Virus record (IMG/VR): IMGVR_UViG_3300009068_000001
Coordinates: 35,806 to 99,805 of that record
DNA: 64,000 nt
Reading direction: 5' to 3' (one strand)
DNA from: a virus
Shown: one piece after another, positions 14,285 to 61,203 of the stretch
Layout of the letters: each line of letters opens with the position of its first letter
Numbering within the stretch: the first letter of the stretch is position 1
The notes under the pieces: model-generated
The model's database searches: none
What the model was told of the DNA's origin: nothing
Seen by the model: the letters and a program-made list of their open reading frames with translations, nothing else
Program-made: the position numbers and the translations under genes

Positions 14285-16056
14285 GCGGGTGCCTTTCCAG
14301 TAGTTTTTAAGTATTCTTTAGTAGCTGCAACAGAAACTTTATCGCCAAACGCAGTCTTTTCATTCCAAAGAGCTGGGTAACGAGCAAAGGAAATGCTAAC
14401 AGTACTGAGCATAGGAACCATATTTAAATCAAACATTGCATGGTTTACACTAAAACTAGCAACAGATCCGTAATACCGTAGGTTTTCATTTAGTACTAGC
14501 CAACAAGGAACACCTGTAGTATATCCAAAGTCAGAAGTAAAACCTTTATAACTACTATTAAAGAGTAAAGAATCTTTTAAAGGATCTCCATTTAAAACAC
14601 GATACAAAAATTCAATATCGTATTCTGTTCCACGATTTAAAATGCCTGCTCTTTCTATAGGATCAAGCGTTCTTCCATAAATTTTATCTTCAGCTATTTT
14701 AGGGTTTTGTAAACGTAAGTACTTTAAATCAGGAATACGGTTAATATAAACCTCAAAGCTAACAACAGAATTACCACTTAGTAAAGTAGCAGGATCACTC
14801 GAACCCATTGTCCAATCTACAGAATTATTAGAAGAACTTTGATACCCAAATTTTTCAGGATTGTACATAAATCTAAATCCCCATTGATTTGTAGAACCCT
14901 TAGAAGACACTAGTTCTTTTAATTTATCTGGGTTTTTATTTAAAATATCTGCACTGTTTATATCTTGAAAAATTCTTCCTCGTTCACCATCAGCAAAAGC
15001 TGGAAGCTCAGCAATAAACTTATCATTTTTTGCGTGTGTTATTCTTTCACCATGTGAGATTCCTCTTGCGTCACGGTGTGGAGGTGGGTTCCACCTAACA
15101 TCTCCTTTAGGAGGAGTAACTGTTGTAATATCTTTTAAACCGTTACCGCTATCTGAAGTATCACTACATGTAGCATTTGACTTAGCAGCAATCATTGGAT
15201 CAGTTACATTTTTCTTAGTCCAAGCAGCTAACTTCTTTTTGTCAGCTAAAACGTCGGCACTCGGAGTACCTTTTGATTGAATTTGATCTCCATTTTTTGT
15301 ACAAGTAAAGTGCTCTTGATTTCCTCTACCACCGAACTGTGCGGTTTTAAAGTTTACAACAAAGTGCCATAATCCACCATTACATTTATCCCAAACATAG
15401 TTACTTAAAACACTTATTTGATTCTGTGCCAAAATAGTATTTTTTTGCATAACCGGTGATTCACCGTATTGAGATTTTATGTATTCTTGGATAGCAACAA
15501 AAGGAAAGACAGGTGCAGTGACTACAGTAGTCCAAGTAATGCTAGGAACTACGTTTCCTGTAGTACCCCAGTTTATTTTATTACTTGCTATTGTTGTCCA
15601 GTTAGGACTAGCATCGCTCTTCCATTGGATTGCTACTGTAGGCGTAGCAATTACCTGTCCGTTTGTAGCCCCAGCTTTACGACTAAAACTTACTTTTTGA
15701 TGTGACTTATCATTTATAATTTTACCTTGCGAAACATAGGCAGTTTGATCGGCAGCCGCATTTGCACTAGCAGTTACACTTATAGTTAACCCATTTGCTA
15801 ACCCATTATCTTCATTGCTACCCGCATTTGGAGAAACAATTGTTCCAGTGTAGGTACCGTCAGATCCTGTAGCAACCCAAGTAGCAAAGTTATTAATCGT
15901 AGTAGCATAGATATCAACTAAATAATATACATAGTATTTAGTATTTGTTTTGTGATTAGCTGCAGTAATTTTTGTATTTTTTACTAGATAATCAGCAGTA
16001 ATAGTAGAGCTCTCGTCTTGATAGCGACGAACGTTTGCATAGTAATAGGTAGCCAT
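14281..16056 (-). CDS. tail tube initiator-like / baseplate protein
   Basis: Position after tape measure; C-terminal FRFMYNP..FSVNHAMFD.NMVP..VSISF. Confidence 0.55.
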   Translation of the reverse strand: MATYYYANVRRYQDESSTITADYLVKNTKITAANHKTNTKYYVYYLVDIYATTINNFATWVATGSDGTYTGTIVSPNAGSNEDNGLANGLTISVTASANAAADQTAYVSQGKIINDKSHQKVSFSRKAGATNGQVIATPTVAIQWKSDASPNWTTIASNKINWGTTGNVVPSITWTTVVTAPVFPFVAIQEYIKSQYGESPVMQKNTILAQNQISVLSNYVWDKCNGGLWHFVVNFKTAQFGGRGNQEHFTCTKNGDQIQSKGTPSADVLADKKKLAAWTKKNVTDPMIAAKSNATCSDTSDSGNGLKDITTVTPPKGDVRWNPPPHRDARGISHGERITHAKNDKFIAELPAFADGERGRIFQDINSADILNKNPDKLKELVSSKGSTNQWGFRFMYNPEKFGYQSSSNNSVDWTMGSSDPATLLSGNSVVSFEVYINRIPDLKYLRLQNPKIAEDKIYGRTLDPIERAGILNRGTEYDIEFLYRVLNGDPLKDSLLFNSSYKGFTSDFGYTTGVPCWLVLNENLRYYGSVASFSVNHAMFDLNMVPMLSTVSISFARYPALWNEKTAFGDKVSVAATKEYLKTTGKAPA

Positions 16057-18428
16057 TAAAGGGCACTTCCAATCTGCTTAAGAATATCACTGTCTTTAAG
16101 TTTCTTGCCAATCATTCTTACTAAACGATCTGCTTCTTGTACAGTTCCCTGAGTGATTTGTACATCCATTTTGAGGTTAATAACAACGTTGCGAGAATGA
16201 CTTGATGAACTTCCTACACCAACATTCATTCCTGCTGAAGGACCACCAAGATCCTCGTTAAAACCTGCGCTAGTTAGTGAAGCACTAAGAGCCGGACTAG
16301 ATAGTTGAGAGGCAGATTTACCTAATTTATTTTGTGTAGCTTTTTTAGCCGACCACATAGAGTCTGAAGAAATAGCTGCAGGCCCAGCTACTACAGCTGC
16401 ACCTGAAGATATAGGACCAGATGGAGCACCACTTAAGTATGGTGCTGGATCAACCTTAACACCTTTTTCATTAAGAATTTCAAAGTGAAGGTGTGGACCG
16501 GTAGAGTTACCCGCACCAGGAGCACCAGCTTTACCGCCAGACTTACCAACAGTTTGTCCAGGAACAACTTCCTGTCCTCTAGAAACACCAATTTGAGACA
16601 AGTGGCCGTAACGAGATGCTGTGCCATCCTCATGTTTTACTTCAATCCAATTTCCATAACCATTAGCATCATTACCAATAGTACTTACAACACCGTTGGT
16701 AACAGCGGTTAAGTTACTTCCTACGGGGGTTCCAAAGTCTATACCTTTGTGATTAGAAGAAATTCCCGGATGGGCAGAGTTATCACGTGGACCAAATGGA
16801 GAAGTGATTGGGGTTGCTTTTGGAACAGGGTATAAGAAAGCTGATGCTTCACCATCGTTAGGGCCACCAACTCCTAGGTTACCGTGATCATTTGGACCAC
16901 CAGAACCAAAGAATCCTGCAATGCCTCCGATAATAGATCCAGCAACAATACTTAAACCTAATGTTTCAGGAGCAAACATTGCTCCAATTGCAGCTCCTGT
17001 AGCAGCGCCAGCACCTGCAGCGGCAAGTGTACTGCCCCCACGTGTAACGCTTTTAGAAGCTCCTACTTTTTTACCTAAAGCTTTTCCGCCCTTACCAACA
17101 CCATAACCTACAGCACCTGCACCTAAACCTGCACCTGCTACTGTTGCACCGGCTGCTAATCCTCCAGCTAATCCTGCACCTTTACCAAGAAGTCCAGCAA
17201 CACCTCCGCCACCCAGTAATCTACTTAACAATGCAAACTGTATAAGAGTTGATGCGGCACCTGCTAGTGCGCCTGTAAATTGAGCAATAACTCCTCCCAT
17301 GTTTCCTGCATTAGGAAGAGTCTGTAAAATTCCTTTAAGGGTCATTAATCCGTCATTAACAGGGCCAAGAGCATCTGCCATTTTACTGTACGCATCATTA
17401 AGAGCGGCAGTAGTACGAAGGGATGCATCATAACCACCAACTAAACCTTGTTCAGTTGCAGCAAGTTTTTTATTTTCACTAGAGTTAAATCTAAAATTAG
17501 CACGAATAGGTGAGCTTTGATCTACACCCATTGCGTTAAGAATCTTGTTAGGGTCTTTCATTTGACCTGCTGTAAGAGCTTTGCCATTGGATGCACGTGC
17601 AAGAATACCTGACTGAATCATCTGCATCAGCTGAGGATCGCCACCAGTAATTTGTTGAATGGTTGCGTAACCCTTACTTCCAGGGTTTAATACAAGAGCA
17701 GCCTGTTGTTTTGTAATCTTTTGACCACGATACAAGAAACTATAAACATCATTAATAATTTGATTAGGCGGTTTTAAGTTACCTTGACGGTCACGAATTT
17801 GAATCCCAGCACGTAAGAAACTCATGCCGTTCATGCCTGCCACACTTGCAGCAGCAGATTCATTGCTCATGCCAGACATGGCGCTTAATCCGCCAATTTG
17901 ACTCATGATATTTTTAGAACTTAATGAGCTAGCTGTATAACCACCTTGATACATTAAGTTCATTGCAGCCATGGTTGGACCCATAGCGCTTGTTGCTCCA
18001 CCACCTACCTGGCGGTTAGCCTGCATAATTGCTTGACGTGAGGACATTCCGCTAAGACCTGCATAAGTATCTGCACCCATACGCTGCGTGACAGCAGCCA
18101 TAGTATTAGGTGCCATCTTCATGTATGTGCTAGCGCCAAATGCAGCTACGCCAATACCTATTCCAACTTTTTCAGCACGTGTAAATGAACCAAGACCAAG
18201 ACGTCCAGCGCCTGGTCTGTCAGAACTCATCTTACTTGTAGCAGCTTCAGTGTCTTTAATAGCCTTAGACCACTCTTCAACCATTTGGTCTACAAGTTTT
18301 TTAGCTTCTTTAAAGTACTTAATAAAGTTTTTAGGTAGGCCATCAAAGTCTACTTGATCCGACATAGATGCAAAACCGGTTGACTCAGCATCAGAAGGGT
18401 TTTCCATATTTCCAAACGCCTCTGCCAT
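16056..18428 (-). CDS. tape measure protein with C-terminal M23 peptidase
   Basis: Ala/Gly/Met-rich helical body; ITSPFGPR..HKGIDF..YGHL..STGPHLHFE. Confidence 0.88.
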   Translation of the reverse strand: MAEAFGNMENPSDAESTGFASMSDQVDFDGLPKNFIKYFKEAKKLVDQMVEEWSKAIKDTEAATSKMSSDRPGAGRLGLGSFTRAEKVGIGIGVAAFGASTYMKMAPNTMAAVTQRMGADTYAGLSGMSSRQAIMQANRQVGGGATSAMGPTMAAMNLMYQGGYTASSLSSKNIMSQIGGLSAMSGMSNESAAASVAGMNGMSFLRAGIQIRDRQGNLKPPNQIINDVYSFLYRGQKITKQQAALVLNPGSKGYATIQQITGGDPQLMQMIQSGILARASNGKALTAGQMKDPNKILNAMGVDQSSPIRANFRFNSSENKKLAATEQGLVGGYDASLRTTAALNDAYSKMADALGPVNDGLMTLKGILQTLPNAGNMGGVIAQFTGALAGAASTLIQFALLSRLLGGGGVAGLLGKGAGLAGGLAAGATVAGAGLGAGAVGYGVGKGGKALGKKVGASKSVTRGGSTLAAAGAGAATGAAIGAMFAPETLGLSIVAGSIIGGIAGFFGSGGPNDHGNLGVGGPNDGEASAFLYPVPKATPITSPFGPRDNSAHPGISSNHKGIDFGTPVGSNLTAVTNGVVSTIGNDANGYGNWIEVKHEDGTASRYGHLSQIGVSRGQEVVPGQTVGKSGGKAGAPGAGNSTGPHLHFEILNEKGVKVDPAPYLSGAPSGPISSGAAVVAGPAAISSDSMWSAKKATQNKLGKSASQLSSPALSASLTSAGFNEDLGGPSAGMNVGVGSSSSHSRNVVINLKMDVQITQGTVQEADRLVRMIGKKLKDSDILKQIGSAL

Positions 18429-24320: not shown

Positions 24321-24548
24321 TTAAGCTCCTACAATTGGAGGAGTAAAAGACTTAGTTGTTTTGTTGTATGTCCAACCCGGGTAGATATCACTATTAGTGT
24401 CATTCTTGATATCTGTAATATCTACAATAGTAGGTTCACTTAAAAGAATTGCGGCTAGACGATCATGAGTATGTAAAATATCCACTACCTGCCCATCAAT
24501 AATAAAAGCAATTTTATTAAATGGAATTTCGGATGCGTTTCCGGTCAT
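24321..24548 (-). CDS. small protein, fibre-assembly-chaperone-like
   Basis: IAFIIDGQVV..PGWTYN..FTPP. Confidence 0.55.
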   Translation of the reverse strand: MTGNASEIPFNKIAFIIDGQVVDILHTHDRLAAILLSEPTIVDITDIKNDTNSDIYPGWTYNKTTKSFTPPIVGA

Positions 24549-24790
24549 TCTGTCTCCTTAAATGATACTTGCATTACGCCCCACTTACCAAGTGGACACG
24601 AGGCATTAGGAAGCTTTGTCTTTAGATTCATCATACATCCGCACTCTTTGCACTGGTTAGTTAATTTAATTAACTGAGGGCATTCAAGGCAAATATTAAA
24701 TCTTTGTTCTGCTATCTCTGTTTCTACTCGACCTAGGTTCTTATTGAATAAGTCCCACGGGCGTGCAGGTCTTTCAAATGGATCAGCCAT
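24545..24790 (-). CDS. small Cys-cluster protein
   Basis: R..IC.ECP..QCKECGC.M..K..ASCPLGKW. Confidence 0.75.
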   Translation of the reverse strand: MADPFERPARPWDLFNKNLGRVETEIAEQRFNICLECPQLIKLTNQCKECGCMMNLKTKLPNASCPLGKWGVMQVSFKETE

Positions 24791-24799
24791 ATTGTAGTC

Positions 24800-26167
24800 C
24801 TAACCAGATATTTTAAAATTGTCTACTGTAGATCCCTGGCCAAATGGGCTAGAGGTCTTAATAATACCATAATTGTTTGCTTTTGCAGGCGAGGTTGCAG
24901 TATGTGTACCAGAGGTTAATAGTCCCGTAAAGTCAGAATTTGAGTAGGCCTGATAACTTAGTACATTTCCTTGAGTATTTAAACGAAGAGCCCCAACTGA
25001 GCCACTTACGCTTATATCTCCAGTAAGGTTTGTGATAGTTCCACCCACTGAACGAATTAGTTTTATATAATAGTTATTGGTAATTGACCCGCAAGTTTGG
25101 CAACCACCGCCGTATTGATCACAATTAGGGTAAGTTCCACCACCGTAGCAAGTAGACCCGGTATAGTAATATGCAACTCCGCAGTCAGGATTTGCACAAC
25201 TATAGCAAGTAGTTGTTCCGGCTGTTGTAACTGTACAAACACCTGTTGATTGGTTAGCTGTACCGCCGCTTGGGCAACTATAGTAACCAGTACCAAACGA
25301 TGTAACGTAGCAACGACCGCCACTTTCAGTACCACTACTACAAGTACAAGTAGTAACTCCACCTGTAGGTATATAGCAGCTGTAGTTACCTGGGTGACCA
25401 CTTTCTCCCTCAGGACATTCGTAACAGTATGATCCAGTGCCACCTGAGTAACAATCAGATGTGCTATAACAATTATAGTTGGTTGGGTCATTAACTTGAG
25501 TTTGACTACATCTACGACCATAAATAACAGCAGAGCCTATATATTTCCAACCACTTACACTTGTTGTACAGTTAGCAGCACCAACATCAGTTACAGTTGT
25601 TCCACCTGGAACATAAGTTCCTTGATAGGTACTAGTACCTCCGCCAGAAGTAGTAGAGCCGCAATAATAACAACTAGTGCAGGTATTATAAACTGGTACT
25701 GGATAAGTATCGCAGTGGCCATTACAGTAACAGTTACATGAATAGGTAGTATTTACTTGGGTTTGAAAAGAAACTAAAGCATACCAGTTATTAGCATCGA
25801 CTACCCAAGCAGCAACACCGGTACCATTACTAACACCGGCTCCTACAGTAACATCGCTAACACCGTAAGCTACGGTAGCAATAGCGTTTGAACTTGCGGC
25901 AGTATCTGATTGAGCAGCAGATCCATTGGCGTACCAAGTACCTGTAACGTTAGTCCAGGTCTCTCCGCTATCTGCTGTACCTAAAACACCTGAAACTGAG
26001 CGGTTAAAAGAGTCTGTAATTGGACCAAGAAACCAACGTACCCAAGTAGTAGCGTCTGTTTTTAACCAAGCGCTCTTAGCAAGGCCCCAAGAATTGGAGC
26101 TTGTTTTTACTTGAACGTCAGTTACGCTACCCCAGTTGCTGGCATCTAATTTTATTTTGGCAGGCAT
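24800..26167 (-). CDS. putative fibre-tip/adhesin: beta-sandwich with a 26-Cys insert
   Basis: Trp-repeat N-terminus; DSFNRS..W..GTW lectin-like start and VDNFK end; central Cys/Tyr/Gly/Thr-rich region. Confidence 0.6.
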   Translation of the reverse strand: MPAKIKLDASNWGSVTDVQVKTSSNSWGLAKSAWLKTDATTWVRWFLGPITDSFNRSVSGVLGTADSGETWTNVTGTWYANGSAAQSDTAASSNAIATVAYGVSDVTVGAGVSNGTGVAAWVVDANNWYALVSFQTQVNTTYSCNCYCNGHCDTYPVPVYNTCTSCYYCGSTTSGGGTSTYQGTYVPGGTTVTDVGAANCTTSVSGWKYIGSAVIYGRRCSQTQVNDPTNYNCYSTSDCYSGGTGSYCYECPEGESGHPGNYSCYIPTGGVTTCTCSSGTESGGRCYVTSFGTGYYSCPSGGTANQSTGVCTVTTAGTTTCYSCANPDCGVAYYYTGSTCYGGGTYPNCDQYGGGCQTCGSITNNYYIKLIRSVGGTITNLTGDISVSGSVGALRLNTQGNVLSYQAYSNSDFTGLLTSGTHTATSPAKANNYGIIKTSSPFGQGSTVDNFKISG

Positions 26168-27099
26168 TATGCGTAGACAATCCAGATATCCCCGACGTTG
26201 CCGTCGCTGCTTATTGGTGCTACAGTTCTTGTATAAACGTTTCGGACAACTCCTGAGCCAAGGGCTGCAGTAGTAACTGTTCCATTACTTTGACCAACAT
26301 AAGATGTTACTGGTGCTACCCAAGTAGCAGTTGTGCCGTTGCTTGTTAAAACGGTTCCATTGGCGCCTATGCCGAGTCTAGATACAGCTCCAGCTCCTGA
26401 CCCAAGGATAAGGTCTCCGGCCGTTGTAACGGTCGCTAGAGGGATTTTAGAGGTATCTGTAGGCACACCCCAGACAACTGAACCAGCACTTACAATAAGT
26501 GATTGACCGTTAGATCCAATACCTAGGCGAGTAACTGTTGCGTTACCAGATCCCAGAATAAGATCTCCCGCAGTTGTAATTGTAGCTAGGGGAATCTTAG
26601 ATGCCGCAGCTGTGGTATTTGAACTAATTGATGTAGTAAGAGTTGTGTAATCAGAACTACCTACATAGAGAACGTTAGATGTAGCAACCTTAGGCAAACC
26701 AGCTGCGTCTAAGTTAAAACCAAGTACGCTTGCGTATGAGTAAGCTTCGATAAGATTAAGACTTGTAGCTCCAGCACGAAGGGTTAAGCCCTTGTTGTTA
26801 GTGGTAGTGATTGTGCTTCCACCAGAAATTAGTGGGTAAGGAGCTCCAGATACACCAGAGATAAGACCAGCCTCAATATTAGCAATACGATCATAAACAG
26901 TTCCCCAAGTAGTTGCTTGAGAGAATGAGCCAGACCATGTAGAGGTAAGAGGGTTTTGCGATGTAGCAGCGCTACCTAGTACCGCCTCAATCTGCTTAAC
27001 TTCCTCTTGGAGGGAGTTAACGTTGTCCGCAATAACAGTGTTGACAAGGTCTTGCTGAGCGGTATAGTTTCTTACGCTATTGGGAAATACTGCTGCCAT
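26167..27099 (-). CDS. fibre protein with two KIPLAT.TTAGDLILGSG..RLGIG.NG repeats
   Basis: Internal repeat; C-terminal AP..GDIWIV motif. Confidence 0.7.
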   Translation of the reverse strand: MAAVFPNSVRNYTAQQDLVNTVIADNVNSLQEEVKQIEAVLGSAATSQNPLTSTWSGSFSQATTWGTVYDRIANIEAGLISGVSGAPYPLISGGSTITTTNNKGLTLRAGATSLNLIEAYSYASVLGFNLDAAGLPKVATSNVLYVGSSDYTTLTTSISSNTTAAASKIPLATITTAGDLILGSGNATVTRLGIGSNGQSLIVSAGSVVWGVPTDTSKIPLATVTTAGDLILGSGAGAVSRLGIGANGTVLTSNGTTATWVAPVTSYVGQSNGTVTTAALGSGVVRNVYTRTVAPISSDGNVGDIWIVYA

Positions 27100-27166: not shown

Positions 27167-28162
27167 CTAAAGTGCGTATCGAATAACTACTAGTCCTGGT
27201 CCACCAGCTGTGTGATAATTTGGCTTACACACACCTGGAATATAATATTGATTGGTACTTTGAGGTGCGTTTGGAGCCTCAGCATAGTAAGAAACATCAT
27301 TACCTGTAGTAGTTGTACCTGAAGTTACTCCGCCGACATATCCTGCACCACCGCCCCCAGCTGAAGAGTAGTAATCACTTCCACCACCGCCACCATAGAA
27401 ACCAGCTCCACCGCCACCGCCACCATAAGTGCCGTTATTAGACATAGAGCTCCCGTCTCCTCCGCCACCAAAACCACCTAGTTGACGGGTGTTTCCAGAA
27501 GGAGATCCATACCCACCGTATAGTGCGCCTCCAGCTTGGCCATCACCATAGCCACCACCAGTGTCAGGACCAAAAGCACCACCAGCAGATTGAGTTCCTC
27601 CATAGCCACCTACACGTCCAGTACCAATAGGTCCTCCACGATTATCGCTATAACCACGGTTACCTGTAGTACCGCCACCTGCACCACCGTTAGCAGCAGA
27701 GCCGCTACCTCCAGAACCACCACCACCGCCAGCTGCAATAATTAAAGCACGTGCTTGACCTGTGGCATCAAATGTAACTGTAGAGCTTCCTGAGAATACG
27801 CCGCTTAATCCTCCGCCACCCCCAGCATACCCTGCTATGTTAGAGCCTTTAGATCCGCCGCCTCCTACAATAACTGCGTAGTCTTGAGCAGAAGCAATAG
27901 TTAAAGTACCTGTTGAATACCCGCCAGAACCACCGGAAGATTGATCACCACCACCGCCAGCTGCACCCCAGCAAAAAATTTCTACTGTTATTGGCTTTCC
28001 TACAGAAAACGTAGCTTGACCAACAGTAGAGAAAGTATGTATGCGATATCCATTTGCTACAGTAATTGTTCCACCAGTAACGGGTGCGCTAAGATGATCC
28101 CAAGACAAAGATCGTTTTGTTCCTGATGCAGAACTTGATGTTGATAGATTACGAATTCCCAT
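27167..28162 (-). CDS. glycine-rich fibre tip / receptor-binding protein
   Basis: GYRIHTF..WGAAGGGG..poly-Gly..GLVVIRY. Confidence 0.75.
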   Translation of the reverse strand: MGIRNLSTSSSASGTKRSLSWDHLSAPVTGGTITVANGYRIHTFSTVGQATFSVGKPITVEIFCWGAAGGGGDQSSGGSGGYSTGTLTIASAQDYAVIVGGGGSKGSNIAGYAGGGGGLSGVFSGSSTVTFDATGQARALIIAAGGGGGSGGSGSAANGGAGGGTTGNRGYSDNRGGPIGTGRVGGYGGTQSAGGAFGPDTGGGYGDGQAGGALYGGYGSPSGNTRQLGGFGGGGDGSSMSNNGTYGGGGGGAGFYGGGGGSDYYSSAGGGGAGYVGGVTSGTTTTGNDVSYYAEAPNAPQSTNQYYIPGVCKPNYHTAGGPGLVVIRYAL

Positions 28163-29094
28163 TAGAATGTCACCGAACCTGTTCCAGCAGTAAATTTATA
28201 GACCTTGTATCCGGCTCTTGTTGTTGTGTCTAAGGTGTATGTTAGACCGCCACCAATAGATGTAATATTTGGGTACGTATTTGGGTACGCAACAATCACG
28301 ACACCAGAACCACCCGCTGCTCCATACCAAGCGTTAGTTGCTTGAGGGTTTGAGTTATCCCAAGTTCCTCCACCACCACCGCCTCCAGTGTTTGCATCTC
28401 CTGCAGTTGGTGCAGCAGCAGTTCCTGAGTAAGGCTGACCGCCTCCCCAACCTCCGCCACCTAAAGACCGCTTCATTGGTACATAACCCGCATAGGCACC
28501 CCAACCTCCGTTAGAGCCAAGACCTTCGGTTCCTCCGTTACCGCCACCACCATAGTAAACATACACACCTGTTATTGAGTACGCTAGGCCGTCTCCGCCA
28601 ACAGGACCAGGACTATTTGATTCTAATGTTCCTGACTGATAACCTTTTAGCCCGGCTGCTGCAGCACCGCCACCACCGCCACCATCAAGGTGATTATTAT
28701 CTACTCGGTATTGAACCCCGCCAGCGTAACCATTTCCAGAAGCAGCCCCATTAGAAAAACTACCACTGGAACCATTACCGCCTACAGCAGTTACTGTAGC
28801 AAAAACAGAAGAGGCGCCCTGTTGTCCATTACCACTATTGCCTGGAACTCCAGCAGCCCCACCTGCACCAACCGTTACAGTAAATGCTCCTGAAGGTTTT
28901 GCAAAGGCGGCGTTATAAGTTACTTGGCCTGCGCCACCGCCACCACCACAATTATACCCTCCGCCTCCGCCTCCACCAACTACTAACAACTCAAAAGTTG
29001 CAGGGGCAGAGACTTGGGCTGATTGATCAAAGATAGTTTGCGATTTTGTAAGACCTCGAACTACAGATGAGGTAGACGCACGAGAAATAGCCAT
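28162..29094 (-). CDS. glycine-rich fibre tip / receptor-binding protein
   Basis: ELLVVGGGGGGG..ANTGGGGGG..GSGVVIVAYP..YKVYKFTAGTG. Confidence 0.75.
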   Translation of the reverse strand: MAISRASTSSVVRGLTKSQTIFDQSAQVSAPATFELLVVGGGGGGGYNCGGGGGAGQVTYNAAFAKPSGAFTVTVGAGGAAGVPGNSGNGQQGASSVFATVTAVGGNGSSGSFSNGAASGNGYAGGVQYRVDNNHLDGGGGGGAAAAGLKGYQSGTLESNSPGPVGGDGLAYSITGVYVYYGGGGNGGTEGLGSNGGWGAYAGYVPMKRSLGGGGWGGGQPYSGTAAAPTAGDANTGGGGGGGTWDNSNPQATNAWYGAAGGSGVVIVAYPNTYPNITSIGGGLTYTLDTTTRAGYKVYKFTAGTGSVTF

Positions 29095-60954: not shown

Positions 60955-61203
60955 ATGTTTGAAATGAATGGTGAACAGTTGTGTGCTCATACTGACAGGG
61001 AGATATTCTTCCCTGTTGGTAAGGCTGATCCAAATAAGAAGCTAGCCTTTGCTATGTGCAAGGCTTGCCCATTGCTTTCAGCGTGTCGTACATACGCTGA
61101 GACCACACCGGGGCTGTATGGCATCTGGGGTGGCAAGGAATACTATGGCATAGGCTTTGTATCCGCTATGTCACATCAAGCAGAAAGGAAACTAAGTGCC
61201 TAA
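60955..61203 (+). CDS. whiB: second WhiB-family protein
   Basis: C..DREIFFP..CKACP..C..YA..GIWGG. Confidence 0.88.
   Translation: MFEMNGEQLCAHTDREIFFPVGKADPNKKLAFAMCKACPLLSACRTYAETTPGLYGIWGGKEYYGIGFVSAMSHQAERKLSA

Follow-up and report, generated by a model that had tools for sequence, protein, structure and literature searches.

A probable cystine-laddered beta ribbon projecting from the lectin-like body of a predicted tail-fibre adhesin in a putative freshwater actinophage

The window examined here, the whole stretch of 64,000 nucleotides that was analysed, corresponds to bases 35806-99805 of a 99,805-bp IMG/VR virus record (IMGVR_UViG_3300009068_000001) that carries direct terminal repeats. 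It encodes on its minus strand a protein of 455 amino acids (aa) with 26 cysteines, which we consider likely to be a distal tail-fibre adhesin: a body of the concanavalin A-like (ConA-like) fold would bear an intramolecular, cystine-laddered ribbon that serves as a probe for the host surface. We regard the architecture as well supported, disulfide bonding in the insert as strongly indicated and a role as a host-range probe as plausible. The gene and its parts are arranged as follows.

24800-26167, minus strand: the fibre-tip adhesin gene (455 aa), taken from the open reading frame (ORF) list, with a 100% self-match in the genome, homologues and a ratio of nonsynonymous to synonymous substitution rates (dN/dS) below 1
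24800-24802, minus strand: the TAG stop of the adhesin gene
26030-26167, minus strand: N-terminal W/K-rich beta-hairpin module (aa 1-46), with strands 4-47 predicted by AlphaFold2 (AF2) and a putative docking role
25766-26029, minus strand: N-terminal half of a predicted ConA-like/CBM66-like beta-sandwich (aa 47-134), Cys-free, with a predicted local distance difference test (pLDDT) score above 95 and a VIA alignment to 4b1m_A
25079-25765, minus strand: the 26-Cys insert (aa 135-363, 229 aa), a predicted out-and-back beta ribbon supported by Cys count, paired Cys gain and loss, AF2 and the lack of a fold match
25376-25567, minus strand: the distal tip, or 'knob', of the insert (aa 201-264), an indel hotspot (indels in columns 232-334 of the alignment A1 described below)
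24803-25078, minus strand: C-terminal half of the predicted beta-sandwich (aa 364-455), Cys-free, with a pLDDT of 95-98 and VIA alignments that reach residue 455

The reading frame of the adhesin is real, since homologues were found and dN/dS lies below 1. A preliminary description of this DNA, made from the sequence alone, had claimed that a segment with 26 Cys interrupts an otherwise Cys-free beta domain, and a script count on the 455-aa ORF bore out the number, the coordinates and the motifs quoted. All 26 Cys fall within aa 144-359, the remaining 226 residues in the flanks contain none, and the insert is bounded by NNWYALVSF (aa 126-134) and NNYYIKLIR (aa 364-372). Its composition is marked by T 40, G 38, Y 27, C 26 and S 25, and it includes small Cys units such as CSSGTESGGRC (aa 276-286) and YSCPSGGT..GVC (aa 296-311). 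Cysteine makes up 11.4% of the insert compared with 0.78% across the 122 ORFs of the genome, and the Poisson probability of finding at least 26 Cys in it is ~1.6e-21, so that the Cys richness is not due to chance. The other virion proteins of the phage mostly hold 0-2 Cys.

The flanks of the insert are predicted with high confidence. In the full-length AF2 model, built from a 125-sequence alignment, the mean pLDDT is 84.7 and both flanks exceed 95; two long strands (127-148 and 354-374) emerge from the sandwich that they form. A VIA-align run against 48,161 Protein Data Bank (PDB) representatives returned as best match the carbohydrate-binding module CBM66 4b1m_A (Z 17.6, 147/165 residues aligned, root-mean-square deviation 2.3), the alignment covering model residues 55-455. 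The lectin domain of galactocerebrosidase (Z 16.6), the C-terminal receptor-binding domain of TM4 gp23 (9n6a, Z 15.4) and a baseplate chain of the mycobacteriophage Douge (8zdo_a, Z 15.0) matched as well. Altogether 133 chains reached a Z of at least 8, and among the matches listed ConA-like lectins, carbohydrate-binding modules and glycoside-hydrolase beta-sandwiches dominate. The alignments span model residues ~47-455, yet they align only 147-172 residues, which are the two flanks. What the model displays is thus the two-sheet jelly-roll beta-sandwich of the ConA-like fold, at a Z of up to 17.6.

Foldseek alone gave no significant match for the adhesin model. Among the predicted viral structures of BFVD, six proteins from uncultured phages, none of them characterised, matched best (E down to 4e-22), and next came proteins annotated as tail-fibre or minor-tail components in phages of Rhodococcus, Streptomyces, Arthrobacter and Gordonia. 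No curated sequence family was found in Pfam, PHROG or NCBIfam at E <= 0.1, the sole family lead being an Atlas feature match to SO2946-like_C clusters (score 0.88), and a search of 50,697 phage records found no match either by tblastn with the adhesin or by megablast with 12 kb. One relative, P0178, joins the two halves of the sandwich by just 13 residues, which argues that the Cys-rich part is a true insertion into a complete domain. The models therefore support a single ConA-like/CBM66-like domain made up of both flanks; the earlier proposal that they fold into one lectin-like domain agrees with their pLDDT, with the match to CBM66 and with the existence of relatives that carry such a short link.

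When aa 127-374 were folded alone with AF2 from a 51-sequence alignment, the insert-only model reached a pLDDT of 89.2 and a predicted template modelling score (pTM) of 0.36, and it was all-beta apart from three short helix turns. The strand pairs read from the DSSP strings (129-148 with 354-372, 151-160 with 331-341, 171-174 with 318-321, and 177-182 with 310-315) describe a ribbon that runs out and back. Its tip (aa ~201-264) has a pLDDT of 48-66 in the full model and of 75-93 in the insert-only model; it holds six Cys, presumably forming about three local cystines, and most of the cystines would lie in the stalk. Foldseek matched the insert-only model to nothing, and among solved structures just two chains reached a Z of at least 2 in VIA, the better one (Z 3.0) being a long beta-hairpin, the stem of the anthrax protective-antigen channel. 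In VIA-align, even models that lack a clear relative tend to reach a best Z of 7-8, so that a best value of 3.0 points to an unusually extended, non-globular insert. None of the structures that match the sandwich aligned to the 229-aa insert, and no hairpin-unit motif is conserved across the whole family.

The pairing of the Cys was read from covariation in alignment A1, which comprises 32 full-length homologues out of the 57 obtained in one search. An even Cys count is found in 31 of these homologues, and eleven Cys are invariant (144, 146, 148, 169, 251, 264, 298, 311, 349, 356 and 359). At other positions Cys appear and disappear together: 152/340 and 276/286 are in the same state in 32/32 rows, the latter two lying within one indel, while 166/321 agree in 31/32 rows, 163/329 and 161/332 in 30/32 each, and 200/274 in 29/32. 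Positions 175/317 are co-present in two rows, and Cys 239 and 248 mostly covary. Three rows that keep C200 without residue 274 show a Cys at 296 instead. The columns of the covarying pairs each change 3-8 times on a tree computed from the flanks only, and the patterns differ from pair to pair, which means that a swap of the whole insert cannot explain the covariation.

The six long-range pairs among these (152/340, 161/332, 163/329, 166/321, 175/317 and 200/274) are perfectly concentric, an arrangement offered by 1 of 10,395 matchings, and in four of them the two positions add up to 492-493. A constant sum is the prediction for a two-stranded antiparallel ribbon in fixed register and agrees with the AF2 strand pairs. 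The preliminary description had pictured an out-and-back protrusion with nested staples, and the concentric order of the six pairs is just what such a shape requires; they fit the AF2 strands as the rungs of a cystine-ladder hairpin would, with the disulfides themselves being what we infer. Further partners can be proposed with varying firmness. C169 is invariant and C324 is present in 31/32 rows, and register and elimination suggest that these two are paired (sum 493). For 220-233, 239-248, 251-264 and 298-311, in which the partners are 9-13 residues apart, the simplest assignment is the closure of local hairpins. At the base, family-wide patterns hint weakly at 148-349 and 146-356, and the set 144-359, 146-356 and 148-349 is only suggested by the sequences. 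The insert would apparently contain about 13 Cys pairs in total.

Independent of any single pair, the number of Cys in the family is informative. Searched with a profile, a set of 1.84 billion representatives yielded 586 cluster matches, 81 of them below 1e-30. Homologues were expected by the preliminary description to show conserved flanks around a variable insert of even Cys number, and this is the picture that the alignments gave: the count is even in 172 of the 196 relatives in hand (p 9e-29) and in 131 of 150 representatives at 50% identity (p 9e-22), compared with 31 of the 70 Cys-containing ORFs of the same genome taken as a control. A bias towards even Cys numbers is a signature of disulfide-forming protein sets, and in aerobic Actinobacteria ~60% of exported proteins have an even count (PMC2823432). 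Counts that leave 0 or 2 when divided by four occur 65 and 66 times, respectively, showing no preference for multiples of four, and His accounts for 0.4% of residues. Parity, the lack of a preference for fours and the scarcity of His together favour disulfides over metal sites, and the sequences strongly indicate disulfide chemistry in the insert.

The idea that the insert Cys instead bind metal, as Zn(Cys)4 knuckles or clusters of the Fe-S type, nevertheless has to be weighed, as it would suit a reducing cytoplasm and a phage for which no oxidase was found. CxxC motifs do occur at 163, 166, 248, 321 and 356 and CxC motifs at 144, 146 and 274; C166xxC169 lies opposite C321xxC324 on the other arm, and His151 and His258 are nearly invariant. 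We regard this explanation as improbable for the insert as a whole. The ligands of structural zinc would be lost in fours, with His among them, whereas in A1 Cys are lost in twos and those that survive keep parity. The total of 26 is not divisible by four, and partners lie at a constant sum of positions across a beta ribbon. The four-Cys cluster 166/169/321/324 is ambiguous by this measure. In addition, the relative P0109 (377 aa) combines same-family flanks with a 143-aa insert that is free of Cys and extremely rich in Tyr, Thr and Ser (YTYSYTYS and YYYY runs), showing that metal is not needed. It follows from P0109 that the ribbon is the primary element and that cystines are staples upon it, and its insert may represent a tyrosine-zipped form of the same ribbon. 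Of the two kinds of staple named in the preliminary description, disulfide or metal, the former is therefore favoured and the latter is disfavoured by the losses in twos, the mod-four counts and the scarcity of His.

A disulfide ladder might also be built between chains, with arms of different subunits cross-linked in a trimeric fibre. Tail fibres are, as is generally known, usually trimers, inter-subunit disulfides are known from the phages Pam3, Milano and Jabs, and both covariation and parity are blind to the difference between intra-chain pairs and symmetric inter-chain pairs. Against such cross-linking, the monomer AF2 models pack the two arms together at a pLDDT of 75-95, and the insert enters and leaves between neighbouring strands, which places both arms of one chain side by side; the matched ConA-like domains, moreover, include modules solved as single chains. 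We hold rungs between subunits to be unlikely. A third view accepts the intramolecular ladder and makes it a mere strut, in which case the sandwich would bind the receptor and the variation of the insert would reflect relaxed constraint. This is a more serious contender than the other two, although we still think it doubtful.

Among 173 relatives with both flanks the insert measures 13-345 aa (median 152) and contains 0-38 Cys. The longest version seen is an ORF of ~820 aa at the related locus L008:703-3159 (plus strand), with ~54 Cys and with ~590 residues between the flanks. In P0178 (668 aa) and P0134 (546 aa) the sandwich is uninterrupted, and modules of 34-40 Cys are appended C-terminally on polyproline linkers. 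Close relatives are 84-96% identical in the flanks and 63-81% in the insert, with a nonsynonymous rate (dN) 2-8 times as high in the insert as in the flanks. The ratio omega amounts to 0.2-0.4 in the insert, up to 0.68 at the tip and 0.09-0.14 in the flanks, and it is always below 1. For a strut speak these low values throughout the protein, the lack of a diversity-generating retroelement (DGR), the ability of ConA-like and carbohydrate-binding domains such as CBM66 and the TM4 gp23 receptor-binding domain to bind glycans by themselves, and the relatives in which the insert is nearly absent and Cys-rich modules sit at the C-terminus. For a probe speaks the fact that the insert changes so much faster even where the flanks are 90-95% identical and spans so wide a range of lengths, as is usual for the part of a fibre that touches the host; its Tyr/Ser/Thr/Gly surface is, as general knowledge has it, typical of binding interfaces. 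On this view it would most probably be the insert that tunes the choice of host surface to be reached or bound.

The preliminary description had called this element hypervariable. The faster evolution and the variable length of the insert uphold part of that claim, but the word is too strong for an omega of 0.2-0.7 and a genome without a reverse transcriptase. No RVT_1 match was obtained in the complete 99.8-kb genome, and on this ground a DGR was rejected, the template-repeat search not having been run. The sequences therefore characterise the insert as the fast-evolving module of the protein rather than one diversified by programmed mutagenesis. Contigs from four sequencing runs were only fragmentary and divergent and gave no usable signal of microdiversity.

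How such a protein would become oxidised is a question that the preliminary description raised by calling it odd for a reducing cytoplasm. The oddity has published precedents, for which oxidation at or after lysis has been proposed. The Agrobacterium phage Milano reportedly has a disulfide network in its virion. In the cyanophage Pam3 the fibres are disulfide-linked to the wedge and can be freed by dithiothreitol (PMC9942802), and the Mycobacterium abscessus phage Jabs contains hundreds of disulfides, whose formation was proposed to take place during or after lysis with the catalyst left open (10.64898/2026.07.24.740622). No thioredoxin or glutaredoxin was found in the phage genome studied here. 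An Erv1-type oxidase gave no match either, but it gave none in the control genomes, so that this result is uninformative.

Our proposal for the adhesin can be put as follows. A short N-terminal hairpin module would dock the protein onto the preceding fibre protein, while the body would be a ConA-like/CBM66-type sandwich of the kind that actinophages use as a receptor-binding domain. Between two neighbouring strands of this sandwich the chain would exit, travel outwards for ~70 residues and come back, building a Thr/Ser/Gly/Tyr-rich, two-armed beta ribbon with its arms tied rung by rung by cystines. Covariation would assign the rungs 152-340, 163-329, 166-321 and 200-274, and register and elimination would add 169-324; small cystine-closed hairpins (220-233, 239-248, 251-264, 276-286 and 298-311) would decorate the return arm and the tip. 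As the adhesin is made in a reducing cytoplasm, the most likely moment for the rungs to form is at lysis or later, in oxic lake water. With the partners already side by side in the ribbon, correct oxidation could proceed without an isomerase, and it would lock the pre-folded ribbon into a stiff, protease-resistant probe. Relatives would lengthen, shorten or re-surface this probe while keeping the Cys count even.

A bolder variant of the laddered probe, for which we see only a slim chance, would turn the ladder into a redox-gated device that is flexible and reduced in the cell and becomes a rigid, oxidised antenna upon release. The neighbouring DUF6171 protein (see below) might then hold, zinc-load or oxidise the ladder, and at the surface of the host the thiol-disulfide machinery of the actinobacterial envelope might reduce it again, as one step in triggering infection. 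If this were true, it would imply that a receptor probe of adjustable length matures through an oxidative pathway specific to the phage.

Several observations weigh against the laddered-probe reading or limit it. An odd Cys count is found in 24 of the 196 relatives. A sign test based on 1-3 contrasts per pair on well-supported branches was concordant throughout, with no pair individually significant. The synonymous rate (dS), too, is raised in the insert relative to the flanks, from which it follows that recombination of insert segments has a share in the covariation. We read the pairing from covariation and strand register, not from S-S distances in the models, and for the six invariant basal Cys it is only suggested by the sequences. 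Instead of nesting, 166-321 and 169-324 cross each other, and their two CxxC motifs (166/169 and 321/324) face one another, which makes a zinc ion possible at that one spot. No oxidoreductase was found in the genome by the searches described above. Finally, the presence of the adhesin in virions, its oxidation and its binding to a receptor are what we infer from the evidence above and from the genomic context.

This context is that of a contractile-tailed phage. Among the gene products are the tail sheath, a baseplate wedge subunit, the portal, a capsid protein and the large terminase (TerL), and the GC content of the genome is ~43%. TerL is 52% identical to that of Streptomyces phage BRock, the phage sequence is present in freshwater metagenome runs, with no RNA run listed among those that contain it, and weak relatives of the flank domain occur in assemblies of Acidimicrobiales, Humibacter and Actinoplanes. 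WhiB is regarded as a marker for actinophages, and lineages with several whiB genes have been noted (PMC10914622). Three such genes are present in the record, each above the Pfam cut-off.

2526-2714 of the window, minus strand: whiB gene 1
60973-61140 of the window, plus strand: whiB gene 2
28750-28971 of the record, outside the window, minus strand: whiB gene 3

Because of the three whiB genes, the BRock-like TerL, the freshwater runs and the weak actinobacterial relatives, the sequences suggest that this is probably a freshwater phage of ~100 kb, contractile-tailed, that infects Actinomycetota. Two genes adjoin that of the adhesin.

26167-27099, minus strand: upstream fibre-shaft-like protein (310 aa; PHROG 23837 'virion structural protein', E 5e-6), syntenic in relatives
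24545-24790, minus strand: downstream DUF6171 protein (81 aa; PF19668, E 6e-7)

The stop of the upstream gene overlaps the ATG of the adhesin by one base. Position in the structural block, translational coupling to this fibre-like gene and a fold like that of actinophage tail-fibre proteins all provide context for a probable place of the adhesin among the tail-fibre proteins of the virion. Many relatives start only at ~aa 47, with profile matches beginning at position 47-50, and no paralogue of the aa 1-46 module was found in the phage genome; this module probably serves to attach the adhesin to the preceding fibre protein. Two adjacent glycine-rich proteins of 331 and 310 aa are encoded immediately upstream of the fibre genes (27167-29094, minus strand), one of which matches PF21722 Gly_rich_2 (E 2e-16) and the other, weakly, an ALK/LTK glycine-rich domain. 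Elsewhere in the window (16056-18428, minus strand) lies the gene for a tail protein of 790 aa whose C-terminal domain (aa 530-715) is metallo-endopeptidase/endolysin-like; the protein probably acts as a tail-associated lysin or belongs to the tape measure.

The DUF6171 protein has six invariant Cys (CxxC-x9-CxxCxC-x12-CP..KW) and a conserved RPARPWD N-terminus in alignment A4. Each of 18 related viral loci has its gene downstream of that for the adhesin, at a distance of 4-21 nt in 16 and of ~420-450 nt in 2, and it is better conserved across these loci (54-91% identity) than the adhesin; a metagenome-contig scan for related loci added only 4. In three database proteins (P0011, P0017 and P0019) the adhesin and DUF6171 are fused, with Q replacing the TAG of this phage. 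Programmed read-through into DUF6171 was considered and rejected, since an arrangement in which the TAG shares its frame with the following ATG is confined to the closest relatives and is therefore not conserved; in most other relatives the stop is out of frame or a different codon, and the TAG overlaps the ribosome-binding site. A role for DUF6171 as a specific partner of Cys-rich fibres is unsupported outside this lineage, as its homologues in other phages are not beside such genes: those of Stenotrophomonas phage Moby, cyanophage PSS2 and Synechococcus phage S-IOM18, and more generally those in Synechococcus, Stenotrophomonas, Rhizobium and Leptospira phages, occupy other contexts. A search for PDB relatives of DUF6171 returned none (best E 0.27, a ribosomal protein, and 0.5, an NSE1 zinc finger), and a literature search found no paper that mentions the family. 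The end of the DUF6171 gene is overlapped by 4 nt by a 75-aa ORF (24321-24548, minus strand) without any family match, for which a chaperone had been suggested in the preliminary description.

If the laddered-probe reading is true, it describes a large adhesin family (586 representative clusters) of uncultured lake phages, in which a single cystine-stapled hairpin serves as a length-adjustable rod. This bears on how phages of abundant freshwater actinobacteria reach their receptors, and on when and how cytoplasm-assembled proteins become oxidised, the same open question that was raised by the authors of the Jabs study. Such a rigid, cystine-runged stalk would tolerate insertions of rung pairs and expose a Tyr/Ser/Thr/Gly surface, making it a possible engineerable display scaffold. 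In terms of method, Cys parity together with paired gain and loss can map disulfide topology from metagenomic sequences alone.

Among known systems, the closest in fold are the actinophage receptor-binding domains of TM4 gp23 (9n6a) and Douge (8zdo_a) and CBM66 (4b1m), which share the flank fold over 147-172 residues at a Z of 15.0-17.6; the TM4 and Douge domains are likewise encoded by tail-tip genes of phages that infect actinobacteria. Judged from the model, the adhesin is by fold a member of these ConA-like actinophage tail receptor-binding modules, although it lacks detectable membership in their sequence families and its insert has no counterpart in the matches. For the laddered-ribbon design as such, no curated family, solved structure (best Z 3.0) or paper describing it was found in the databases and literature searched. 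Jabs, itself an actinophage, Milano and Pam3 resemble the present case in that structural proteins of tailed phages are assembled in the cytoplasm and disulfide-bonded in the virion; there, single cystines link subunits or stabilise loops, whereas here a dense intramolecular ladder is proposed. T2/S16 gp38 and the DGR targets Mtd and tentaclins, as is generally known, also combine a conserved scaffold with variable host-contact segments at the tip, but their folds differ (polyglycine sandwich and C-type lectin, respectively) and they have no Cys ladder.

The projection itself invites comparison with two further groups, both matters of general knowledge. Cystine-ladder hairpin peptides such as theta-defensins, protegrin and tachyplesin hold antiparallel strands together by successive cross-strand disulfides, within 17-18 residues and with 2-3 rungs; the present insert, with 229 residues and ~13 cystines, would be built on about a tenfold scale. 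The ultralong third heavy-chain complementarity-determining region (CDR-H3) of bovine antibodies, to whose knobs the preliminary description had likened the insert, sends a beta stalk out of a sandwich to a disulfide-bonded tip unit and combines an even Cys number with a conserved scaffold and a variable projection. The likeness holds as an analogy of shape, given the predicted ribbon, its distal six-Cys segment (aa 201-264) and the even parity, but not in the distribution of cystines, which here would mostly be rungs of the stalk with only about three in the tip. The scaffold, moreover, is a ConA-like sandwich rather than an immunoglobulin heavy-chain variable domain, the projection is 3-4 times longer, and ordinary mutation, indels and recombination, not programmed hypermutation, generate its diversity. 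The projection thus belongs neither to the cystine-ladder peptides nor to the bovine stalk-and-knob family, while the domain that carries it takes its place among the ConA-like modules of actinophage tails.

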